Below are positions 1 through 5,088 of a stretch of DNA of 5,088 nt, in pieces; the stretch's first letter is position 1, and each line of letters starts with the position of its first letter. The stretch comes from a virus: IMG/VR virus record IMGVR_UViG_3300029706_000090, positions 1 through 5,088 of that record, one strand, 5' to 3'. The notes beneath the pieces are model-generated. The model was not told the origin of the DNA. It saw only the letters and a list, made by a program, of their open reading frames with translations, and did not search any database. Both the position numbers and the translations under genes were made by a program.

Positions 1-93
1 CAGAGTTGCAAGAATAGAGGAAGTAGCGGTCTGAAGTCATCATCCTTTCATAAAAATATTTATGGCACATGTCACGGTCGAAGCATGAGAACC
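1..93. repeat. Terminal direct repeat, identical to 4996-5088. Most simply a circular replicon of about 4995 bp laid out with 93 bp of overlap. Less likely, att-type duplication flanking an integrated copy.
   Basis: Bases 1-93 (cagagttgcaagaatagagg...catgagaacc) recur exactly at 4996-5088. Genes and ORFs continue across the junction. Confidence 0.95.
43..70. other. dif-like candidate XerC/D-type recombination site (tcctttCATAA-aaatat-TTATGgcacat), repeated at 5038-5065
   Basis: The inner half-sites CATAA-N6-TTATG are the most conserved core of dif sites. It lies in a noncoding gap between two small ORFs. No tyrosine-recombinase or integrase gene is present in the element. The outer arms are divergent and the region is AT-rich, so it could be chance. 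Confidence 0.3.
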
Positions 94-185
94 AACATAG
101 AGAAAACAGCAGCGAATACAATGAAATAGCCAATCTCGGGGACAGTGAAGATACCGAAACAATACTGTAAAGGTAAAATAGTCAT
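72..185 (-). CDS. 37-aa hydrophobic small protein, a candidate minor coat protein (pVII/pIX-like by size). Sequence: MTILPLQYCFGIFTVPEIGYFIVFAAVFSMLVLMLRP.
   Basis: Not in the ORF track (too short). Its ATG overlaps the stop of the upstream 205-aa ORF (ATGA at 183-187), implying translational coupling. It is a single predicted transmembrane helix. The stop is TGA at 72-74. Confidence 0.4.
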   Translation of the reverse strand: MTILPLQYCFGIFTVPEIGYFIVFAAVFSMLVLMLRP

Positions 186-802
186 CAGCTCATGCGCCCC
201 CAAATCGCGTTTTTAATCCAAGTAACAGTAGTAATGAAGACAAGGACAACAAGCAGAGCAGAAACGCAAGCTTGCGGGTTGAGTACCTGAGAAGTGGTAG
301 TGGAATCTTCCTCATAAGGGAGCTGAATAAGTTGAGTCGCACTATTATAGGAATACCTTTCAGACGTATAGCCGGACTTGTGCACCGTCTCAGTGCGTTC
401 GATAAAAAACGTGTCTCCGAACCAATCCATAATAGAAGTGAAACTATTAGAGACGTTAGGGAGATTAGCATACAAAGCCGGAGTATCTGCGGCACGGTCA
501 TCATAAGCGGTCAAACTCCCCTCAAAAGGCAATTCTTCTTCCTGAGGAACATAATCTTCACGGAGGTCAGGAGATTCAGTGATATTTTGTGCAGGTTCAC
601 CAGAAGCAGAAGCTTCAGACGGAGAATCATCTCGTGCATCTTGCTGTGAATCAAGTTTAACAATAGCTTCGGCAGATGCCTTAAGATAATCATACTGCTG
701 CACGGTCATGTCACAAGTACTACCGTCTTTATACAGCACAGTGTAGACAGTAACGCCGTCAGTATCAACCCAAGTTTTGATAATAGCAGGGACTTCCATC
801 AT
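185..802 (-). CDS. 205-aa acidic protein with a C-terminal transmembrane helix (tail-anchored), in the position pVI occupies in Ff phages. Function unknown.
   Basis: Long ORF with an excellent SD (GGAGGTGATAA before ATG). Its start overlaps the stop of the 55-aa ORF (ATGA). It has a Glu/Asp/Ser-rich middle and a C-terminal hydrophobic stretch, ACVSALLVVLVFITTVTWIK. Confidence 0.7.
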   Translation of the reverse strand: MMEVPAIIKTWVDTDGVTVYTVLYKDGSTCDMTVQQYDYLKASAEAIVKLDSQQDARDDSPSEASASGEPAQNITESPDLREDYVPQEEELPFEGSLTAYDDRAADTPALYANLPNVSNSFTSIMDWFGDTFFIERTETVHKSGYTSERYSYNSATQLIQLPYEEDSTTTSQVLNPQACVSALLVVLVFITTVTWIKNAIWGRMS

Positions 803-966
803 TTATCACCTCCATCCCAAAGGCCACGGAGAACAAAACCAACAAGCGAAAGCAGAAGACAGACAAGAACGAAGTTGCCAAAGGTACCGAAGCCGAAAAA
901 AGAAAGATTAAGGACATTAGCGATAAACGATGTTACAACACCGAGGGTCGAAACGAAGTCTACCAT
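799..966 (-). CDS. 55-aa small hydrophobic membrane protein, a candidate virion minor coat or membrane protein. Sequence: MVDFVSTLGVVTSFIANVLNLSFFGFGTFGNFVLVCLLLSLVGFVLRGLWDGGDK.
   Basis: Not in the ORF track. AAAGGA lies 9 nt upstream of the ATG at 966. The start overlaps the stop of the 43-aa ORF (ATGGTAG), and its own stop overlaps the start of the 205-aa ORF (ATGA). It has two hydrophobic segments. Confidence 0.5.
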   Translation of the reverse strand: MVDFVSTLGVVTSFIANVLNLSFFGFGTFGNFVLVCLLLSLVGFVLRGLWDGGDK

Positions 967-1091
967 GGCAACCAATCCTTTACGAATTTATAGATACCGA
1001 GGGCAACGAGAAAAACGACAACGGCGATAACAAGAGCACCACCGGAACCGAGCAAGCCAAAGACCTGCTTGAAAAAGTCAATAAAAGTCAT
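960..1091 (-). CDS. 43-aa major-coat-protein candidate (pVIII-like, with no signal peptide, as in Pf3 coat protein). Sequence: MTFIDFFKQVFGLLGSGGALVIAVVVFLVALGIYKFVKDWLPW.
   Basis: Not in the ORF track. GAAAGG lies 9 nt upstream of the ATG at 1091. The ATG overlaps the TGA of the pIII-like gene (ATGA at 1088-1091). The protein has an amphipathic N-terminus, a hydrophobic core, and Lys residues near the C-terminus, which is the typical pVIII layout. Confidence 0.5.
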   Translation of the reverse strand: MTFIDFFKQVFGLLGSGGALVIAVVVFLVALGIYKFVKDWLPW

Positions 1092-2266
1092 CCGTCAACC
1101 GCCTTTCGTATCAACATACGGAGCACAACGGCACCAAAGACCATGAGCGAAATAATGAAAAGGAAGCCGCCAAGATTCTGAAACATGGCATTTAGTACCG
1201 AAATAGAAGTCGAAGCAACGTCAGTATCTACGGAAGAAGAAGAATTCCAAGAATTCAAGTTATCCTTTGTGTTTGTGAGAGTATCGGAATCAACATCAAA
1301 GTCCTTAACAAGCTGGTCTTGAAGCTTATCCATAGTAACTTGAGAAATCCAATCACCAACCTTGACATCAGCAGGAAGCAAAGCATCAGGAACCCAAAGA
1401 GTTAAAGCAAAAGAGATAGAAACATCAAATTGCGTATTATAGACATGCATACCAGAACTAGAAGGTTGCTTACAAAAAACTAAACCAACGTCAGAAGAGG
1501 GAATAGAAAAAGCAAGGGGGAAAGGACGATAAGAGGGAGTACTTAAATGCGACATGCTCAAATGCAAATAATTATCATTAGAGGGGGAAGCCCAAAAATC
1601 ATTATCACCGTTCCGAATACTAAAAGAAGTATGATTAGTAGAACTATCGGATTTATCCCCAAAAAAGAAAATATTAGTGGGAACATAAATAGGATTATAA
1701 TCAAATATTTCGTGATCGAAATAATCAGAAATAGAAGAAGAATCAGAAGAAGGCCAAGAAGTCAAAAAACCAAAAATAGAACGGTCGGAAAAGACATCTG
1801 AAATGTTTTGAAGATCACCTCTCCATTTAACAGGATAAACGCGGAGAGCGCCAATATTGTAAGAAGGGTCACCAACAGGAAAAGAGGGCAAATCAAAAAG
1901 ATAACCAAAATCACTAGTCGGAACATAAGGAACCGAATACATATAAGTATGCGTAGTACCAGAAGAAGAAGTATAAGAATAGGTCGAAGAATCAGTTGAA
2001 TAAGGGAGCCAAGAATTATAAGAACTACCAGGGTAAGAGGAATACTCCTTCATAGGAGAGCAAATCAACTCATAACCAGAATACCCAGATAAAGACTTGC
2101 GTTGCCAAACATACCAAGAGCCAGGACGAGAATGAAAATCATCATTAGAAGGAGACGCGGGCCAATTATTAGATGCAAAAGCAGGAACAGAAAGAGAAAA
2201 AGAAAGAACCAAAGCCGCGACAAGGGCGGCGAAGCGCTTAAAGAAGCACCAATGCTTTTTATTCAC
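1088..2266 (-). CDS. pIII-like adsorption or minor coat protein. It has an N-terminal signal peptide, a Ser/Tyr-rich ectodomain, and a C-terminal membrane anchor. The probable start is GTG at 2266, which follows AAAGGTGGT + 9 nt. The maximal ORF begins at GTG 2284 and gives 398 aa.
   Basis: The signal-peptide-like N-terminus is (M)NKKHWCFFKRFAALVAALVLSFSLSVPAFA|SNN. The C-terminal hydrophobic anchor GFLFIISLMVFGAVVLRMLIRK is followed by a short basic tail. It is the largest structural gene, with tiny coat ORFs downstream of it. Confidence 0.6.
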   Translation of the reverse strand: MNKKHWCFFKRFAALVAALVLSFSLSVPAFASNNWPASPSNDDFHSRPGSWYVWQRKSLSGYSGYELICSPMKEYSSYPGSSYNSWLPYSTDSSTYSYTSSSGTTHTYMYSVPYVPTSDFGYLFDLPSFPVGDPSYNIGALRVYPVKWRGDLQNISDVFSDRSIFGFLTSWPSSDSSSISDYFDHEIFDYNPIYVPTNIFFFGDKSDSSTNHTSFSIRNGDNDFWASPSNDNYLHLSMSHLSTPSYRPFPLAFSIPSSDVGLVFCKQPSSSGMHVYNTQFDVSISFALTLWVPDALLPADVKVGDWISQVTMDKLQDQLVKDFDVDSDTLTNTKDNLNSWNSSSSVDTDVASTSISVLNAMFQNLGGFLFIISLMVFGAVVLRMLIRKAVDG

Positions 2267-2313
2267 TTCGCCACCACCTTTCACGGCATCGAATAACGGA
2301 GGTCAATCCGTAC

Positions 2314-2387
2314 TGGTTGCGGGGTTAGGATTCGAACCTACAGCTTCACGTTCAGAGCGTGACGTGCTACCGTTGCACCACCCCGCC
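2314..2387 (-). tRNA. tRNA-Gln (anticodon CUG at 2355-2353), 74 nt, with an encoded 3' CCA
   Basis: Minus-strand sequence: GGCGGGGUGGUGCAACGGUAGCACGUCACGCUCUGAACGUGAAGCUGUAGGUUCGAAUCCUAACCCCGCAACCA. Cloverleaf features by eye: acceptor stem 2-7/66-71 (6 bp, G1·A72 mismatch), U8, A14, a 4-bp D-stem GUGC/GCAC with G18G19 in the D-loop, a 5-bp anticodon stem UCACG/CGUGA, loop CU-CUG-AA with U33 and A37, a 4-nt variable loop, and a GGUUCGAAUCC T-arm (G49·A65 mismatch). Confidence 0.7.
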
Positions 2388-2447
2388 ATGTGAGAGCGGC
2401 GAACCACTCTCCCATAGGAAATGAAATTTAGGTTTGAACAAAGAAAG

Positions 2448-2690
2448 TTAAACTTCCTCAATTCCGAGAAGAAACCCATTGCGGTCGAAGTCGAAATCGT
2501 ACATAGCGCCAACAACAACAAGCGCATACGGCATCATACGAGCGTCAACATTGATTCTATCAACCTGCACGCCATCGTTGTCATCATTTGCACGCATCGA
2601 ATATTCGACCATGAGAGTAGTAAAATCATAGTTTTTGCCCTGCTTAGATGTGCCAGCGCGACGGGACTTACCAACTACAGTAGCTTTCAT
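2448..2690 (-). CDS. ssDNA-binding protein, gpV-like (80 aa)
   Basis: It lies immediately downstream of Rep, as gV does in Ff. GAAAGGATGG lies 7 nt upstream of the ATG. The segment SRRAGTSKQGKNY resembles the M13 gV DNA-binding wing TRSGVSRQGKPY (pattern S-R-x-G-x-S-[RK]-Q-G-K-x-Y). The size matches gV (87 aa in Ff). Confidence 0.6.
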   Translation of the reverse strand: MKATVVGKSRRAGTSKQGKNYDFTTLMVEYSMRANDDNDGVQVDRINVDARMMPYALVVVGAMYDFDFDRNGFLLGIEEV

Positions 2691-2708
2691 TGAGAGACCA
2701 TCCTTTCA

Positions 2709-3845
2709 TCAGAATAAAGATATATCATCAAACCCGACTTCACTAAAGGGAGAGGGGTCATCAGCGACTTCACGAAATTCTTCAACGGCAACACGCGAGG
2801 ATTCCGAGAATTGCGCAACTTCCTCTGTCAGCGCCAGAGGGGAGAACGGAAGACGCTCATTATAAAACTGTTCCCACTTACAACAAGCGAGGATTAGAAG
2901 CTCAGGGCGATAAAGCATAATATCAATAAGCCTGTGACCGAAGACATTAGCAACATAGGTCATTTTTTCTTCCTCGGTATGGATAGCAACGGAGAACTTT
3001 TGAACAAGGTCATCACTAAGGGGATGCGATAAGTCCTTAGTGAACTTAATGTTACGGGCATCAATATCGGTCACAAACTGCATATCATCCCAGCCATCAG
3101 GGAGAAGAATTTCATTCCCATAGCGACACCAGAATTTACGGAGATAAGCGAAGAGCATGTCAGGGTCTTCATAGTAAAACCAGAAAAGAGGAGAGGGGTC
3201 ATAGACGGTACGAGACCCAGCACGAACACGAGAAATGAATTTAAGCTCCATTTCATAACGAATAATATAGGAATCATCAGGGCAATCCAGAAGTTCACCA
3301 GAAGACATACAGAACTTTTGTTCAGGGTCTTGCAGAGATTTATTATAGATACGACAGAAGACCGCAGAAGACGTTCTGCGACCGATATAAACGGTAGTAG
3401 AATCGCCATAGCCTAGATACATGAACTTGCGAACCTTACGGGCTTTTTCAGGGTAATTCATTTCATCGACAGATGCAGTAACAACACCGAGATAGAACTC
3501 GCGCCACCGTTCTTTTTTCATAACAACATCGAAACAAAAGTCAAGACGGGAAAAATGACCGTATACATGACCTTCCTGCATCAGTGACGCAAGTCGTGGT
3601 AAGGTGGAGCGGAAAAGCTCACAACCATGACCAGACACTTGCAAAGAATGCGGAGATTGTTTCGCACCGTTGTTCGGCTTATAGAAAAGCCCCGCAGGGG
3701 AATTAAAAGGGGAATTCTCACTTGCGTTAGAAGTCTGTGCAAAGTGCAAATCACCCTTAGCAAGAGCATCTTCGATTTTAGGAATAGAAATTGAGCCCTG
3801 TTCAAAAGCAAATGTAGCGTAGTCAAGTTTAACAACCGTTTTCAT
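2709..3845 (-). CDS. rep: Rolling-circle replication initiator of the Rep_trans family (pT181 RepC/RepD-like). The probable start is ATG 3845, which follows AAAGGTGG. The maximal ORF starts at 3887 and gives 392 aa.
   Basis: Motifs: SRLDFCFDV near the N-terminus of the domain; CRIYNK with the putative catalytic Tyr codon at 3345-3347; YIIRYEMELK (compare the R-V-E-I-E-L-K segment of staphylococcal RepC/D). The upstream ATG at 3887 has no SD and lies inside the predicted -10 hexamer of the promoter. Confidence 0.8.
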   Translation of the reverse strand: MKTVVKLDYATFAFEQGSISIPKIEDALAKGDLHFAQTSNASENSPFNSPAGLFYKPNNGAKQSPHSLQVSGHGCELFRSTLPRLASLMQEGHVYGHFSRLDFCFDVVMKKERWREFYLGVVTASVDEMNYPEKARKVRKFMYLGYGDSTTVYIGRRTSSAVFCRIYNKSLQDPEQKFCMSSGELLDCPDDSYIIRYEMELKFISRVRAGSRTVYDPSPLFWFYYEDPDMLFAYLRKFWCRYGNEILLPDGWDDMQFVTDIDARNIKFTKDLSHPLSDDLVQKFSVAIHTEEEKMTYVANVFGHRLIDIMLYRPELLILACCKWEQFYNERLPFSPLALTEEVAQFSESSRVAVEEFREVADDPSPFSEVGFDDISLF

Positions 3846-3877
3846 GTGAGAAAACCACCTTTCATTTCCATGGCTAA

Positions 3878-3906
3878 ATGTTACCATAGTATGGATAAGC
3901 TGTCAA
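3878..3906 (-). promoter_or_regulatory. Sigma70-like promoter reading into rep on the minus strand: -35 TTGACA (3906-3901), 17-bp spacer, -10 TAACAT (3883-3878)
   Basis: Perfect -35 hexamer, optimal 17-bp spacing, 4/6 match at -10. It lies about 35 nt upstream of the SD and ATG at 3845. It is the only obvious promoter on the coding strand, which is consistent with a single operon that ends at the terminator at 4089-4141. Confidence 0.5.
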
Positions 3907-3922
3907 GAGGAAATTTCAAAAA

Positions 3923-3949
3923 GGTGGGCGTATTACACGAACGCCCACC
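3923..3949. other. 9-bp perfect inverted repeat (GGTGGGCGT...ACGCCCACC) with a 9-nt loop. It is a candidate plus-strand origin, Rep nick-site hairpin or operator just upstream of the promoter.
   Basis: Perfect complementarity between 3923-3931 and 3941-3949, in the noncoding region between the terminator and the rep promoter. Confidence 0.4.
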
Positions 3950-4010
3950 GGCTCCCGCCATCACGGTAGACACTACACAACGGAAGCCCCTACCAAACTG
4001 TTTAGGAGGG

Positions 4011-4029
4011 GCAAGGGCTTTGCCCTTGC
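4011..4029. other. 8-bp GC-rich hairpin (GCAAGGGC-TTT-GCCCTTGC) in the intergenic region. It is a candidate for a minus-strand origin, packaging signal or ori structure.
   Basis: Perfect 8-bp stem with a 3-nt loop, embedded in a GC-rich noncoding segment (3950-4088) that is atypical of the rest of the genome. Confidence 0.35.
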
Positions 4030-4088
4030 GGGGACGAGGGACGCGGTGGAGACGCTATCGCGCGACTAAACGTCGGGAGTGCTCCGGT

Positions 4089-4141
4089 AAAAAAAAGAAC
4101 TCCCCTAACCCCCTACGGGGGCACGGGGAGAACTTTTTTTT
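4089..4141 (-). terminator. Strong bidirectional rho-independent terminator. It ends the minus-strand operon directly after the Zot-like gene.
   Basis: A8 (4089-4096), then a two-tier GC stem CTCCCC/GGGGAG (4100-4105/4125-4130) enclosing CCCCC-TAC-GGGGG (4109-4121), then T8 (4134-4141). On the minus strand the stop codon TAA (4142-4140) runs into the stem-loop, followed by UUCUUUUUUUU. Confidence 0.75.
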
Positions 4142-4763
4142 ACTTCGAGGGGGTCTTGCTGATAACCTGCTCTGTATCGTATTCTAAGGCACTCACCTGC
4201 TTCACGGACTTAGGGATAGTATACCACCTTGCCCTGCCAGCCTTGCGCACCGTGTTGACCAGCTCTTGGCCTCCCTCGGGGCGATGTTCCATGGCAATGC
4301 AGGAGCGATAAGGAGTAAGACGACAGAACCAGCCGATGCGGTTGCAAAGAAAAATACGGTCACAGAGGTCACGAATCTTTTTATCAAAGTCCATGGTCTG
4401 AGAAGATACAATAATCGTCAAATGATATTTGCGCTGCATTTTGAAAAACTCAACTGCTTCTCGGGGCATAGTCTTGAAGTCACGGTTAGAGTGGAGCACG
4501 CCTATCTCATCAATGAGAATGAGAGAATCAGGGAGAAAGGTCTGTTTCCAATATTCCGGCTCTAACTCATAACCGATACCCATATTAGAATAGATAAGCC
4601 CCTTATTAGAACGAAGCCACTTATCAGCAACACGAGACATATACAGAGATTTGCCAGAGCCTTTTGAACCAACAACAGCTTCCAATTTGTATGGATTTTT
4701 GCAATAATTATCGATATATACAAAAAGCCAGCAAATACAAAAGATGAGAATACCATAAAGCAT
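4140..4763 (-). CDS. Zot/pI-like P-loop NTPase, a filamentous-phage assembly ATPase. This short form has an N-terminal transmembrane helix and no C-terminal periplasmic domain. The probable start is ATG 4763, which follows AAAGGA + 9 nt. The maximal ORF starts at 4781 and gives 213 aa.
   Basis: Walker A GSKGSGKS is encoded at 4670-4647. Walker B LILIDEIG compares with Zot FLFIDECG. YHLTIIVSSQT compares with Zot HHGWDICLTTPN. The N-terminal hydrophobic segment is LYGILIFCICWLFVYI. It is the last gene before the terminator, as gI is late in Ff. Confidence 0.75.
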   Translation of the reverse strand: MLYGILIFCICWLFVYIDNYCKNPYKLEAVVGSKGSGKSLYMSRVADKWLRSNKGLIYSNMGIGYELEPEYWKQTFLPDSLILIDEIGVLHSNRDFKTMPREAVEFFKMQRKYHLTIIVSSQTMDFDKKIRDLCDRIFLCNRIGWFCRLTPYRSCIAMEHRPEGGQELVNTVRKAGRARWYTIPKSVKQVSALEYDTEQVISKTPSK

Positions 4764-4786
4764 AGCATATAATCCTTTCATAAGAC

Positions 4787-4829
4787 GAGAAAACGTCGCC
4801 GACCATAAAATGGTCGGCGGCGTTTTCTC
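4787..4829. other. 19-bp near-perfect hairpin (one G·U pair) with a 5-nt loop, between the 42-aa coat-like ORF and the Zot-like gene. It is a candidate packaging signal, minus-strand origin or attenuator.
   Basis: GAGAAAACGTCGCCGACCA (4787-4805), loop TAAAA, then TGGTCGGCGGCGTTTTCTC (4811-4829). It ends 5 nt before the ATG at 4781. No U-tract follows in either orientation. Confidence 0.5.
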
Positions 4830-4836
4830 TCAGCGT

Positions 4837-4965
4837 TTAACTGCGACCGGGAATCCAGCGGCGGAGAACACGAAGCACAATGCCCGCGATAGCGATAATC
4901 ACGAAGACAAGCAGAATCGGCTGCGATTCATAGAAATCAATAAGCTGACCCATCCAAGTGATCAT
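4837..4965 (-). CDS. 42-aa pVIII-like coat protein candidate. Sequence: MITWMGQLIDFYESQPILLVFVIIAIAGIVLRVLRRWIPGRS.
   Basis: Not in the ORF track. It has the canonical major-coat layout: an acidic amphipathic N-terminus (D10, E13), a hydrophobic core, and a basic C-terminus (four Arg). It is followed by the 19-bp hairpin, which is reminiscent of the structure after gVIII in Ff. There is no clear SD, so the start is uncertain. Confidence 0.4.
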   Translation of the reverse strand: MITWMGQLIDFYESQPILLVFVIIAIAGIVLRVLRRWIPGRS

Positions 4966-4995
4966 CGAAGTGAAGAATTCACCGACCAAGGAAAG

Positions 4996-5088
4996 CAGAG
5001 TTGCAAGAATAGAGGAAGTAGCGGTCTGAAGTCATCATCCTTTCATAAAAATATTTATGGCACATGTCACGGTCGAAGCATGAGAACC
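4996..5088. repeat. Second copy of the 93-bp terminal repeat (equals 1-93)
   Basis: Exact identity with 1-93, offset 4995. Confidence 0.95.

Follow-up and report, generated by a model that had tools for sequence, protein, structure and literature searches.

A phage-encoded, initiator-like tRNA with anticodon CUG probably serves a private CAG start codon in a gut inovirus

Phages that recode stop codons use suppressor tRNAs to gate their late genes. At start codons, the closest described systems are laboratory ones: an Escherichia coli initiator tRNA carrying the anticodon CUA supports initiation from UAG at 50-60% of the level seen with AUG and receives mainly Gln (10.1101/524249), and initiator features moved into tRNA-Gln let that tRNA initiate (PMC7949028). 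Compensatory mutants of tRNA-fMet have also shown that, in E. coli, position 37 of the initiator pairs with position -1 of the 5'-untranslated region (PMC10018350). Here we describe a 74-nucleotide (nt) tRNA gene with anticodon CUG in IMG/VR virus record IMGVR_UViG_3300029706_000090 (positions 1 to 5,088; this whole stretch of 5,088 nt is referred to as the window), together with a coat-like gene of the same genome whose proposed start codon is CAG. Our favoured reading, which we consider very probable, is that the phage encodes an initiator tRNA in which CUG has replaced CAU as the anticodon and which serves that single, private start codon. It is also likely, although we hold this broader claim with more reserve, that the window is one member of a widespread family overlooked by annotation: a natural orthogonal initiation system in gut phages, where reprogrammed initiator tRNAs (CUG, NGU and apparently CCU) read private starts (CAG, ACN and AGG) on structural genes via four-base pairing.

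The initial annotation had described the gene as a canonical-looking tRNA-Gln with an encoded CCA, on the coding strand and inside the operon, between the SSB-like and adsorption-like genes. Its location and its nature as a tRNA both hold. ARAGORN called tRNA-Gln(ctg) at 2318-2386, and Infernal aligned the gene with Rfam RF00005 over the full length (1-71) at 53.5 bits, against a gathering score of 29 (E 8.6e-10). The bases that had been listed (U8, A14, G18G19, U33, A37, the T-loop GGUUCGAAUCC and the CCA) are all there, and the two non-standard pairs that had been pointed out, G1.A72 and G49.A65, are the same two that Infernal marks on its NC line. The remaining elements are the pairs G2:C71, C3:G70 and G4:C69, discriminator A73, a 7-nt D loop, the anticodon loop CUCUGAA (with A37) and a 4-nt variable loop.

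Conservation of the tRNA extends to more than 40 related gut inoviruses with circular genomes. All four GenBank relatives carry it in the corresponding position, behind the SSB-like gene, and it was present in 24 of the 27 IMG/VR relatives found via the Rep protein, the other three contigs stopping short of its position. Covariation was assessed on 31 distinct family sequences and against 500 shuffles: the family cloverleaf was 91% paired, 11 pairs had changed on both sides, and the score was reached by 0/500 shuffles. The compensatory stem swaps in relatives include UCACG/CGUGA to CCAGC/GCUGG, UCGCG/CGCGA and UCAGU/ACUGA, and G.U intermediates in the stems occur only on the coding-strand sense. 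Because of this conservation, the compensatory changes and the shuffle test, we take the gene to specify a functional RNA and not a relic.

Some members of the window clade depart from the common pattern (L numbers are our handles for related genomes, contigs and loci). L014, L016, L020, L023 and L025, whose Rep and Zot proteins are 84-87% and 95-98% identical to those of the window, carry a second, clearly different tRNA allele (GGCGGGTTGGTGTAATGGTAACACGCAAGG-UUCUGAG-CCTTG...) that retains anticodon CUG, G1.A72, A37 and the CAG coat start; its presence inside the clade suggests that the tRNA gene has been exchanged between phages. The tRNA of L022 (1578-1646) appears damaged, with a D loop one G short, an 8-nt anticodon loop and a C>T change in the acceptor stem.

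As for its kind, the acceptor stem and the nearest relatives of the molecule are those of initiator tRNA-fMet and contradict a canonical tRNA-Gln. When the 74-nt tRNA was searched with blastn against 5426 complete E. coli genomes, only tRNA-Met genes matched (median 4 per genome; 77.6% over nt 2-74) and no tRNA-Gln was retrieved. The E. coli locus examined is a tandem tRNA-Met trio adjoining amiC, with C1.A72 (CGCGGGG...CCCCGCAACCA), an acceptor end CGCGGGG/CCCCGCA-A-CCA and a GGG/CCC anticodon stem; on these three features we identify the trio as initiator tRNA-fMet. From 2:71 to 7:66 the phage acceptor stem is the E. coli tRNA-fMet acceptor stem, followed likewise by A72, A73 and CCA, and only nt 1 differs. 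The 1:72 position is unpaired in 30 of the 31 family sequences (G.A, C.A or A.A), A72 being fixed and nt 1 variable, while all the other stems covary; the earlier suggestion that G1.A72 marks a specialised molecule is well founded. G2:C71 and C3:G70 are invariant (31/31), and a review of initiator tRNAs names the 1x72 mismatch with these two pairs as formylation determinants (PMC7949028).

For comparison, the identity set of E. coli tRNA-Gln comprises U1:A72, G73 and G2:C71/G3:C70 (in part from PMC9976931). The window tRNA has G1.A72, A73 and C3:G70, and only its anticodon fits tRNA-Gln; that anticodon is also the point at which it departs from the CAU of an initiator. The window clade and the other Gln-type tRNAs have A73 as discriminator, the Thr-type tRNAs from GenBank have U73, and the metagenomic tRNAs have U, C or A, a variation that is consistent with, but no proof of, adaptation to different synthetases. 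Judged by its sequence, the window tRNA is not an ordinary tRNA-Gln and is built like a bacterial initiator tRNA.

The other half of the argument is a gene that lacks an ordinary start. A Shine-Dalgarno (SD) motif, GAAAGG(A/T)(G/T)G, ends 10-12 nt before the ATG or GTG of all the other window genes (Zot, Rep, SSB, pIII-like, p43 and p58). Behind the SD motif of the coat-like gene there is no usable ATG, GTG or TTG; instead, CAG lies 10 nt after GAAAGG (GAAAGGATGATGACTT-CAG), at the same position as the ATG/GTG of Zot, pIII, p43 and p58. The coat frame is closed by TGA TGA 1-2 codons upstream, then reads CTT CAG and continues as a 63-codon open reading frame (ORF). CAG is invariant in 33/33 clade genomes, and the codons after it vary synonymously (GGC/GGT, GCA/GCT/GCC, ACT/ACG) and by whole-codon indels. 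In the predicted protein, a single hydrophobic helix lies between a polar N-terminus and a basic C-terminus; the protein aligns over its full length with the coat-like proteins of other lineages. Its counterpart in L036 matches PHROG 2186 ('virion structural protein', E 7.7e-6), the L036 type being the only one supported by PHROGs; none of the coat proteins gave a significant Pfam match. The window gene itself belongs to no PHROG family, while all the other window genes match PHROGs at E <1e-26, and it is unannotated in GenBank records MT135292/293/296/305, evidently because gene callers require ATG, GTG or TTG.

Three other openings for the coat frame were considered and rejected. The TTG at 4989 given in the ORF listing has no SD ahead of it and is CAG (Gln) in eight relatives. 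The ATGs in GGATGATG are within 0-3 nt of the SD core, overlapping the motif, and would yield an ORF of just 19 codons in another frame; they are individually lost in L019, L001, L017, L020 and L027, and the substitution pattern marks the other frame as coding. An extension of the coat frame under genetic code 4 (TGA = Trp) is contradicted by Rep, which ends with TGA at full PHROG length, and by the relatives, where the upstream ATG is AAG or TTG.

Across the wider family, the anticodon and the first coat codon change together. Anticodon CUG goes with start CAG in the window, L033, L036 and L151 (records MT135307, bajarodino virus 50 and, for L151, a prophage in Oscillospiraceae bacterium 44-34); CGU goes with ACG in L034, L158, L161, L166, L183 and L202 (MT135291); AGU with ACU in L035, L149, L159, L174, L194 and L209 (MT135284 and a contig of a Selenomonadaceae bin); UGU with ACA in L037, L172, L177 and L180 (bajarodino virus 22); and GGU with ACC in L234, a paralog of which starts with ACU (G:U wobble). 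In the distant small inoviruses, the exact cognate codon comes 7-8 nt behind a strong SD and opens a coat-like ORF of 60-68 amino acids (aa). A metagenome scan for members with NGU anticodons returned 106 loci with 55 distinct tRNAs, and those recognisable metagenomic coat homologs without a canonical SD-linked start had the cognate codon at the SD-linked position. These analyses were restricted to coat homologs; a genome-wide 'orphan ORF' rank statistic over all codons was too noisy because wrong-frame ORFs dominate on the T-rich strand. The 'non-cognate' matches of a loose ACN scan were second codons, codons beside a real ATG, or internal or wrong-frame ORFs.

The match extends to a fourth base. 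N37 of the tRNA is complementary to mRNA position -1 in 42/42 genomes and in L036, and at 38 of the 39 metagenomic cognate starts. All four states occur: A37 with U(-1) in the window, L035 and L036; C37 with G(-1) in L033, L037 and L151; U37 with A(-1) in L034 and many CGU types; and G37 with C(-1) in L172, L177 and L180. Position 37 of these tRNAs is unusual in that any base can occur there. Comparative evidence thus points to decoding of an SD-linked start with N37/-1 pairing, as in an initiator. In our view the N37/-1 match is the strongest single argument for a role in initiation, since it has no counterpart in A-site decoding.

Relatives that lack the tRNA supply the complementary observation. 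In L147, L148, L152 and L153, from Pseudoflavonifractor, Clostridia and Eubacteriales, the homologous coat genes have the same SD and open with ATG, GTG or TTG. Between L153 (GAAAGGAGTGtttttaATG) and L151 (GAAAGGAGTGtttctgCAG) essentially only the start codon differs, and the coat N-termini with and without a tRNA align within 0-3 residues.

Many of the related inoviruses have two tandem coat paralogs (L033, at 4323-4505 and 4521-4685; L034; L147; L153; L234). In genomes with a tRNA, the non-canonical start belongs to the longer paralog, whose N-terminus is rich in Thr, Ser and Pro, and the shorter paralog opens with ATG or TTG; L234 is non-canonical at both starts (ACC and ACU).

Initiation at CAG, the role best supported by these data, was not among the roles that the initial annotation had proposed. 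One that was, an ordinary elongator tRNA-Gln supplementing CAG decoding (codon compensation), we regard as very improbable. CUG does read CAG, ARAGORN and Rfam/Infernal both call tRNA-Gln, partial blastn matches (nt 8-61) lead to annotated actinophage tRNA-Gln genes, and CAG is slightly commoner than CAA in the phage genes (24 vs 17). However, this is no marked bias, and an elongator tRNA-Gln would not account for the initiator-type acceptor stem, the conserved 1:72 mismatch, A73 or the failure to retrieve any E. coli tRNA-Gln by similarity. Moreover, sister phages carry CGU, AGU, UGU or GGU, each matching its SD-linked first coat codon; anticodons such as AGU make no sense for codon supply, the covariation of N37 with mRNA -1 is meaningless for A-site decoding, and non-purine bases occur at position 37 in the family.

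There is similarly little chance that the tRNA shape is only a punctuation site for RNase P or RNase Z between the SSB and adsorption genes, with no decoding. Such a signal needs just the acceptor/T-arm shape, and would leave unexplained the anticodon loop that is invariant within the clade, the five-class match of anticodon and start codon, the N37/-1 match and the loss of canonical coat starts only where the tRNA is present. What speaks for processing is that the tRNA lies within the operon without a promoter of its own, between conserved flanking hairpins, and has features favourable to RNase P: U(-1), G+1 and the encoded CCA. The part of the earlier proposal that survives is thus that processing may be a side effect; as an account of the covariation with the coat start codon it fails. 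RNA processing is probably a by-product and not the reason for the tRNA.

Alternatively, the coat gene could be started in some other way (host tRNA-fMet on a near-cognate codon, frameshifting from the ATGs at the SD, or reinitiation), with the tRNA match incidental. The window clade does have two ATGs in another frame 0-3 nt after the SD core, and ACG is a known weak near-cognate start. Yet CAG differs from AUG at two positions, the ATGs are individually lost in the five clade genomes named above, and L035, L036, L037 and L149 have no ATG nearby at all; since several lineages are without any nearby ATG, initiation by other routes fails. An incidental match would also not be expected to recur for CAG, ACG, ACU, ACA and ACC plus a fourth base. 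We consider this explanation most unlikely too.

Less probable still is a DNA-level cloverleaf in the packaged strand, acting as a minus-strand origin (as the initial annotation had allowed) or packaging signal. The packaged strand of filamentous phages is normally mRNA-sense, so a cloverleaf could form in the single-stranded DNA (ssDNA), but a separate non-coding region of long hairpins of the usual origin type exists between Zot and Rep, the G.U intermediates fit RNA, and such an element would explain neither the tRNA-specific bases and the CCA nor the anticodon and its covariation with a start codon far away. Least credible of all is the earlier idea that links the gene to integration into host tRNA genes, as a relic (a captured fragment) or as a target (attP): many inoviruses integrate into tRNA genes (PMC6813254), but this tRNA is full length and under purifying selection with compensatory changes, the 5-kb genome has no integrase, in prophage L151 the tRNA is internal, between the SSB-like and adsorption-like genes and not at the border, and the anticodon/start-codon match would again be unexplained.

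Several observations weigh against an initiator tRNA dedicated to the coat start. Two initiator marks are absent: A11:U24 is replaced by U11:A24 in 31/31 family sequences, and the three consecutive G:C pairs of the anticodon stem, which matter for IF3 proofreading in E. coli (PMC7949028), are A29:U41, C30:G40 and G31:C39 in the window. The pairs 29:41, 30:40 and 31:39 vary freely in the window clade, and L034 and L036 retain two of the three G:C. Among the metagenomic starts, the single departure from complementarity at the fourth pair is a U37:C(-1). In L033, L151 and L034 the SD motif itself contains a GTG or TTG in frame, although its closeness to the SD makes it an unlikely start. The L022 coat gene keeps CAG although its tRNA looks damaged, which could be a sequencing artefact or reflect a defective genome. 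In L070, a 4723-nt IMG/VR contig with an initiator-like tRNA near one end (C1.A72, anticodon CGU, U37), we found no cognate coat start: it showed neither a Zot homolog nor an SD-linked, coat-like ORF starting with ACG, and the contig may be incomplete or from another phage type. The 'coat protein' label is a provisional one, given for size, topology, gene position and weak homology. The charging route would depend on whether the host uses GlnRS or GluRS/GatCAB, and related prophages sit in Oscillospiraceae and Clostridia. More generally, all that is said here of expression, processing, charging, formylation and the coat N-terminus is deduced from comparative evidence.

With these points in mind, initiation by the phage tRNA could proceed as follows. 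The tRNA would be transcribed within a single operon, Rep-SSB-tRNA-pIII-...-coat-terminator, running from the promoter-like site at 3906-3878 to 4819-4797. RNase P would excise it and its 3' end would be trimmed to the encoded CCA, which U(-1), G+1 and the CCA fit, leaving the upstream hairpin at the 3' end of the Rep-SSB mRNA. Charging would fall to a host synthetase that recognises its substrate by the anticodon; on the model of the initiator anticodon mutants of E. coli, this is most likely GlnRS, which would attach glutamine and for which U35 and G36 are major elements (PMC9976931). The unpaired 1:72, G2:C71 and C3:G70, the determinants that are present, would make it a substrate of methionyl-tRNA formyltransferase and IF2 and a poor one of EF-Tu. 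On the 30S subunit the tRNA would pair with the CAG 10 nt after GAAAGG, and A37-U(-1) would add the fourth pair that the covariation supports; this pair may compensate for the missing G:C pairs of the anticodon stem. The coat protein would then be made beginning with (formyl-)Gln. Because, in this scheme, the private start is read only by the phage tRNA, virion-protein synthesis would depend on it, and the most abundant virion protein would be translatable only where that tRNA is present. The benefit to the phage is speculative: gating or insulation of an abundant membrane-active protein, a non-Met virion N-terminus, or independence from the host initiator pool.

The hairpins that flank the tRNA (Table 1) are themselves conserved. 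The upstream one is kept in relatives with compensatory changes (e.g. GAGAGCUG..CAGCUCUC), and L001-L004, L035, L036 and L149 have an equivalent hairpin, different in sequence, ahead of the tRNA. Once RNase P has cut, the upstream hairpin probably shields the Rep-SSB mRNA at its 3' end, or else it serves as a weak attenuator. The downstream one is conserved in the window clade and present in the minimum-free-energy (MFE) fold.

A similar arrangement is seen in larger phages. IMG/VR contigs of 27-39 kb without Zot (L137, L049, L051, L063, L113, L115 and L140) carry a tRNA with C1.A72, CCA and anticodon CCU. In their structural genes (terminase large subunit, SU10-type major capsid, SPP1-type portal, tail tube and others) the first SD-linked codon is AGG, after SD + 7 nt and often directly after a stop codon, with mostly A at -1, opposite U37; the SU10-type major capsid profile aligned from position 4. 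With SD-linked AGG and an initiator-like CCU tRNA, double-stranded DNA (dsDNA) phages thus seem to use the same mechanism for late genes.

Further relatives of the tRNA were met elsewhere. Contigs of 30-58 kb (L041, L045, L058, L069, L094, L098, L106, L143 and L154) and metagenomic loci (L186, L195, L206, L221 and others) have a related tRNA with the loop UUAGUGU, in which the anticodon appears to be AGU; its anticodon stem is GGG/CCC, and positions 1 and 72 look like U1.U72. There was no enrichment of ACU starts in these contigs by the orphan-ORF statistic, which is noisy. In IMG/VR, the pattern of the tRNA 5'-half was matched mostly by tRNAs of larger phages with the anticodon CAU (Met/fMet-like). 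We also looked for a CAU version, which might be ancestral, in inoviruses, and no small contig bearing one had Zot. L005 (MT839577.1), a 7.1-kb human-gut 'Bacteriophage sp.' record, has at 3969-4041 a tRNA(CAU) 81% similar to that of the window; this tRNA has U1-A72 and A11:U24 and follows closely on a hairpin. The record yielded no Zot homolog and is probably not an inovirus.

The window itself represents a circular genome of 4995 nt, its two ends overlapping by 93 nt (bases 1-93 recur at 4996-5088), and the minus strand is the coding strand of all its genes. Pfam matches were PF05707 (Zot) and PF02486 (Rep_trans), and on the strength of these Zot/pI and Rep_trans genes we class it as an inovirus; the small hydrophobic coat genes, the circle of about 5 kb and the single coding strand agree with this. 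It also encodes several small membrane proteins. The nearest GenBank records are four porcine 'Inovirus sp.' genomes (MT135292/293/296/305; 76-83% identity), whose annotations use microvirus-style names (protein A, C, F, H) that misfit an inovirus. A promoter scan of the window gave no promoter-like site adjoining the tRNA gene; the best site, upstream of Rep, probably drives the operon that holds the tRNA and the coat gene. A terminator scan matched at 4819->4797, within the terminator-like hairpin. The long inverted repeat between Zot and Rep may be an origin, a packaging signal or a bidirectional terminator; a mir-936 match to it was rejected as spurious.

Table 1. Positions of the features discussed (window coordinates, except for the last row)
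Feature	Positions	Strand	Remarks
Initiator-like tRNA, anticodon CUG, encoded CCA, 74 nt	2314-2387 (read 2387->2314)	-	ARAGORN, Rfam, covariation
Stable hairpin GAGAGUGG-UUCG-CCGCUCUC	2392-2411	-	4 nt (ACAU) upstream of tRNA 5' end; in MFE fold
Small hairpin ACGGA..UCCGU (putative element)	2297-2311	-	immediately 3' of CCA, before adsorption-gene ribosome-binding site
Coat-like gene, 63 codons + stop, (Q)TATSSILATLLSLVGEFFTSMITWMGQLIDFYESQPILLVFVIIAIAGIVLRVLRRWIPGRS	4837-5028	-	last gene before terminator, just upstream of Zot
Shine-Dalgarno motif GAAAGGAUG of coat-like gene	5036-5044	-	repeated at 41-49 in terminal duplicate
CAG, proposed start codon of coat-like gene	5026-5028	-	repeated at 31-33; U at -1 complementary to tRNA A37
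Terminator-like hairpin and U-rich tail	4787-4829	-	directly 3' of coat-like gene; inverted repeat, 20-nt arms, 95% complementary
Zot/pI-type assembly ATPase	4140-4763	-	Pfam and PHROG matches
Non-coding hairpin region	about 3900-4140		between Zot and Rep; usual origin type
Inverted repeat, 27-nt arms, A8/T8 runs around G+C-rich core	4087-4143		non-coding, Zot-Rep interval
Best promoter-like site, TTGACA-17-TG-TAACAT	3878-3906	-	upstream of Rep
Rep_trans-type initiator	2709-3845	-	Pfam and PHROG matches
SSB-like, 80 aa	2448-2690	-	ORF listing, PHROG matches
Adsorption-like (pIII-like), secreted, 398 aa	1088-2266 (alternative end 2284)	-	ORF listing, PHROG matches
Genes of contig L137 with apparent AGG starts	3384-5141, 5833-7488, 8115-9113, 10203-10538, 11430-11852, 11861-12310, 13085-14554		

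On the side of the hosts, a Rep-based scan of species genomes found nothing, and a scan with a Zot profile returned relatives in Oscillospiraceae, Pseudoflavonifractor, other Clostridia and a Selenomonadaceae bin; the strong SD usage fits Firmicutes. The closest of these relatives (83% identical Zot) is L146, a contig labelled Alistipes onderdonkii. Its bases 1-1802 belong to a prophage of the window clade, inside which the contig ends, and 1803-9804 are 62%-GC DNA with RadA, a CwlD-like amidase, a manganese-catalase/CotJC-like protein and CysK. This flank looks like that of a spore-forming Firmicute, and it looks as if the bin label is wrong or the contig chimeric.

If initiation at private start codons by phage tRNAs is confirmed, it would be the first natural reassignment of a start codon by a dedicated initiator tRNA found in our literature search. 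Start codons would be evolvable private signals by which phages could gate abundant or late proteins at initiation, and some proteins would begin with Gln or Thr instead of Met. The debated fourth pair between tRNA position 37 and mRNA -1 would gain natural covariation in four base states. Gene callers limited to ATG, GTG and TTG would miss the major coat gene of these inoviruses and mis-start the capsid, portal and terminase genes of the CCU/AGG phages. For engineering, Firmicutes-type systems would offer ready orthogonal pairs of initiator and start codon.

Our search of the full-text literature found engineered anticodon-mutant initiators and phage elongator tRNAs, and neither a natural non-AUG initiator tRNA nor such a tRNA in an inovirus; as there is no natural counterpart in that literature, we rate this as a new kind of system. 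By sequence, its closest known molecule is the bacterial initiator tRNA-fMet (E. coli metZWV/metY), the sole E. coli relative retrieved. The two share acceptor positions 2-7 (GCGGGG/CCCCGC), an A72 unpaired with nt 1, A73 and CCA, the loop bases C32 U33 C34 and A37 A38, and the pairing of position 37 with mRNA -1. They differ in the anticodon (CUG and not CAU), presumably in the amino acid, which would not be Met, and at nt 1, where tRNA-fMet has C1.A72 and the window G1.A72; C1.A72 is found in clade members L085, L091, L111, L120, L123 and L138, and in L033 and L151. The window tRNA is further set apart by the lack of three consecutive G:C pairs, by U11:A24 in place of A11:U24, and by its 7-nt D loop and 4-nt variable loop.

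In function, the likeness to stop-codon recoding is that a phage tRNA redefines a codon in structural or late genes and makes them dependent on phage decoding; recoding acts on stop codons in elongation, whereas the system proposed here would act on a start codon in the P site. Phage elongator tRNAs (codon compensation, anticodon-nuclease escape; PMC10264068) are likewise carried by phages, but they serve elongation and belong mainly to large dsDNA phages, whereas the window tRNA is in a 5-kb ssDNA phage and has initiator features and a match to a start codon. The tRNA-Gln made into an initiator by transplanting C1xA72 and the three G:C pairs (PMC7949028) shares with the phage tRNA a Gln anticodon and an initiator-type top of the acceptor stem; that construct also needed the G:C pairs, which the phage tRNA does without. 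The nearest parallel in principle is with the engineered initiator anticodon mutants (CUA; i-tRNA-AAC; phage biocontainment with UAG starts), in which a change of anticodon likewise moves initiation to the complementary, SD-linked codon. Those are laboratory E. coli constructs on the full tRNA-fMet body; the phage pair of tRNA and start codon is natural, phage-borne and confined to the coat gene, occurs with at least five anticodons, and has an N37/-1 pair that co-evolves.

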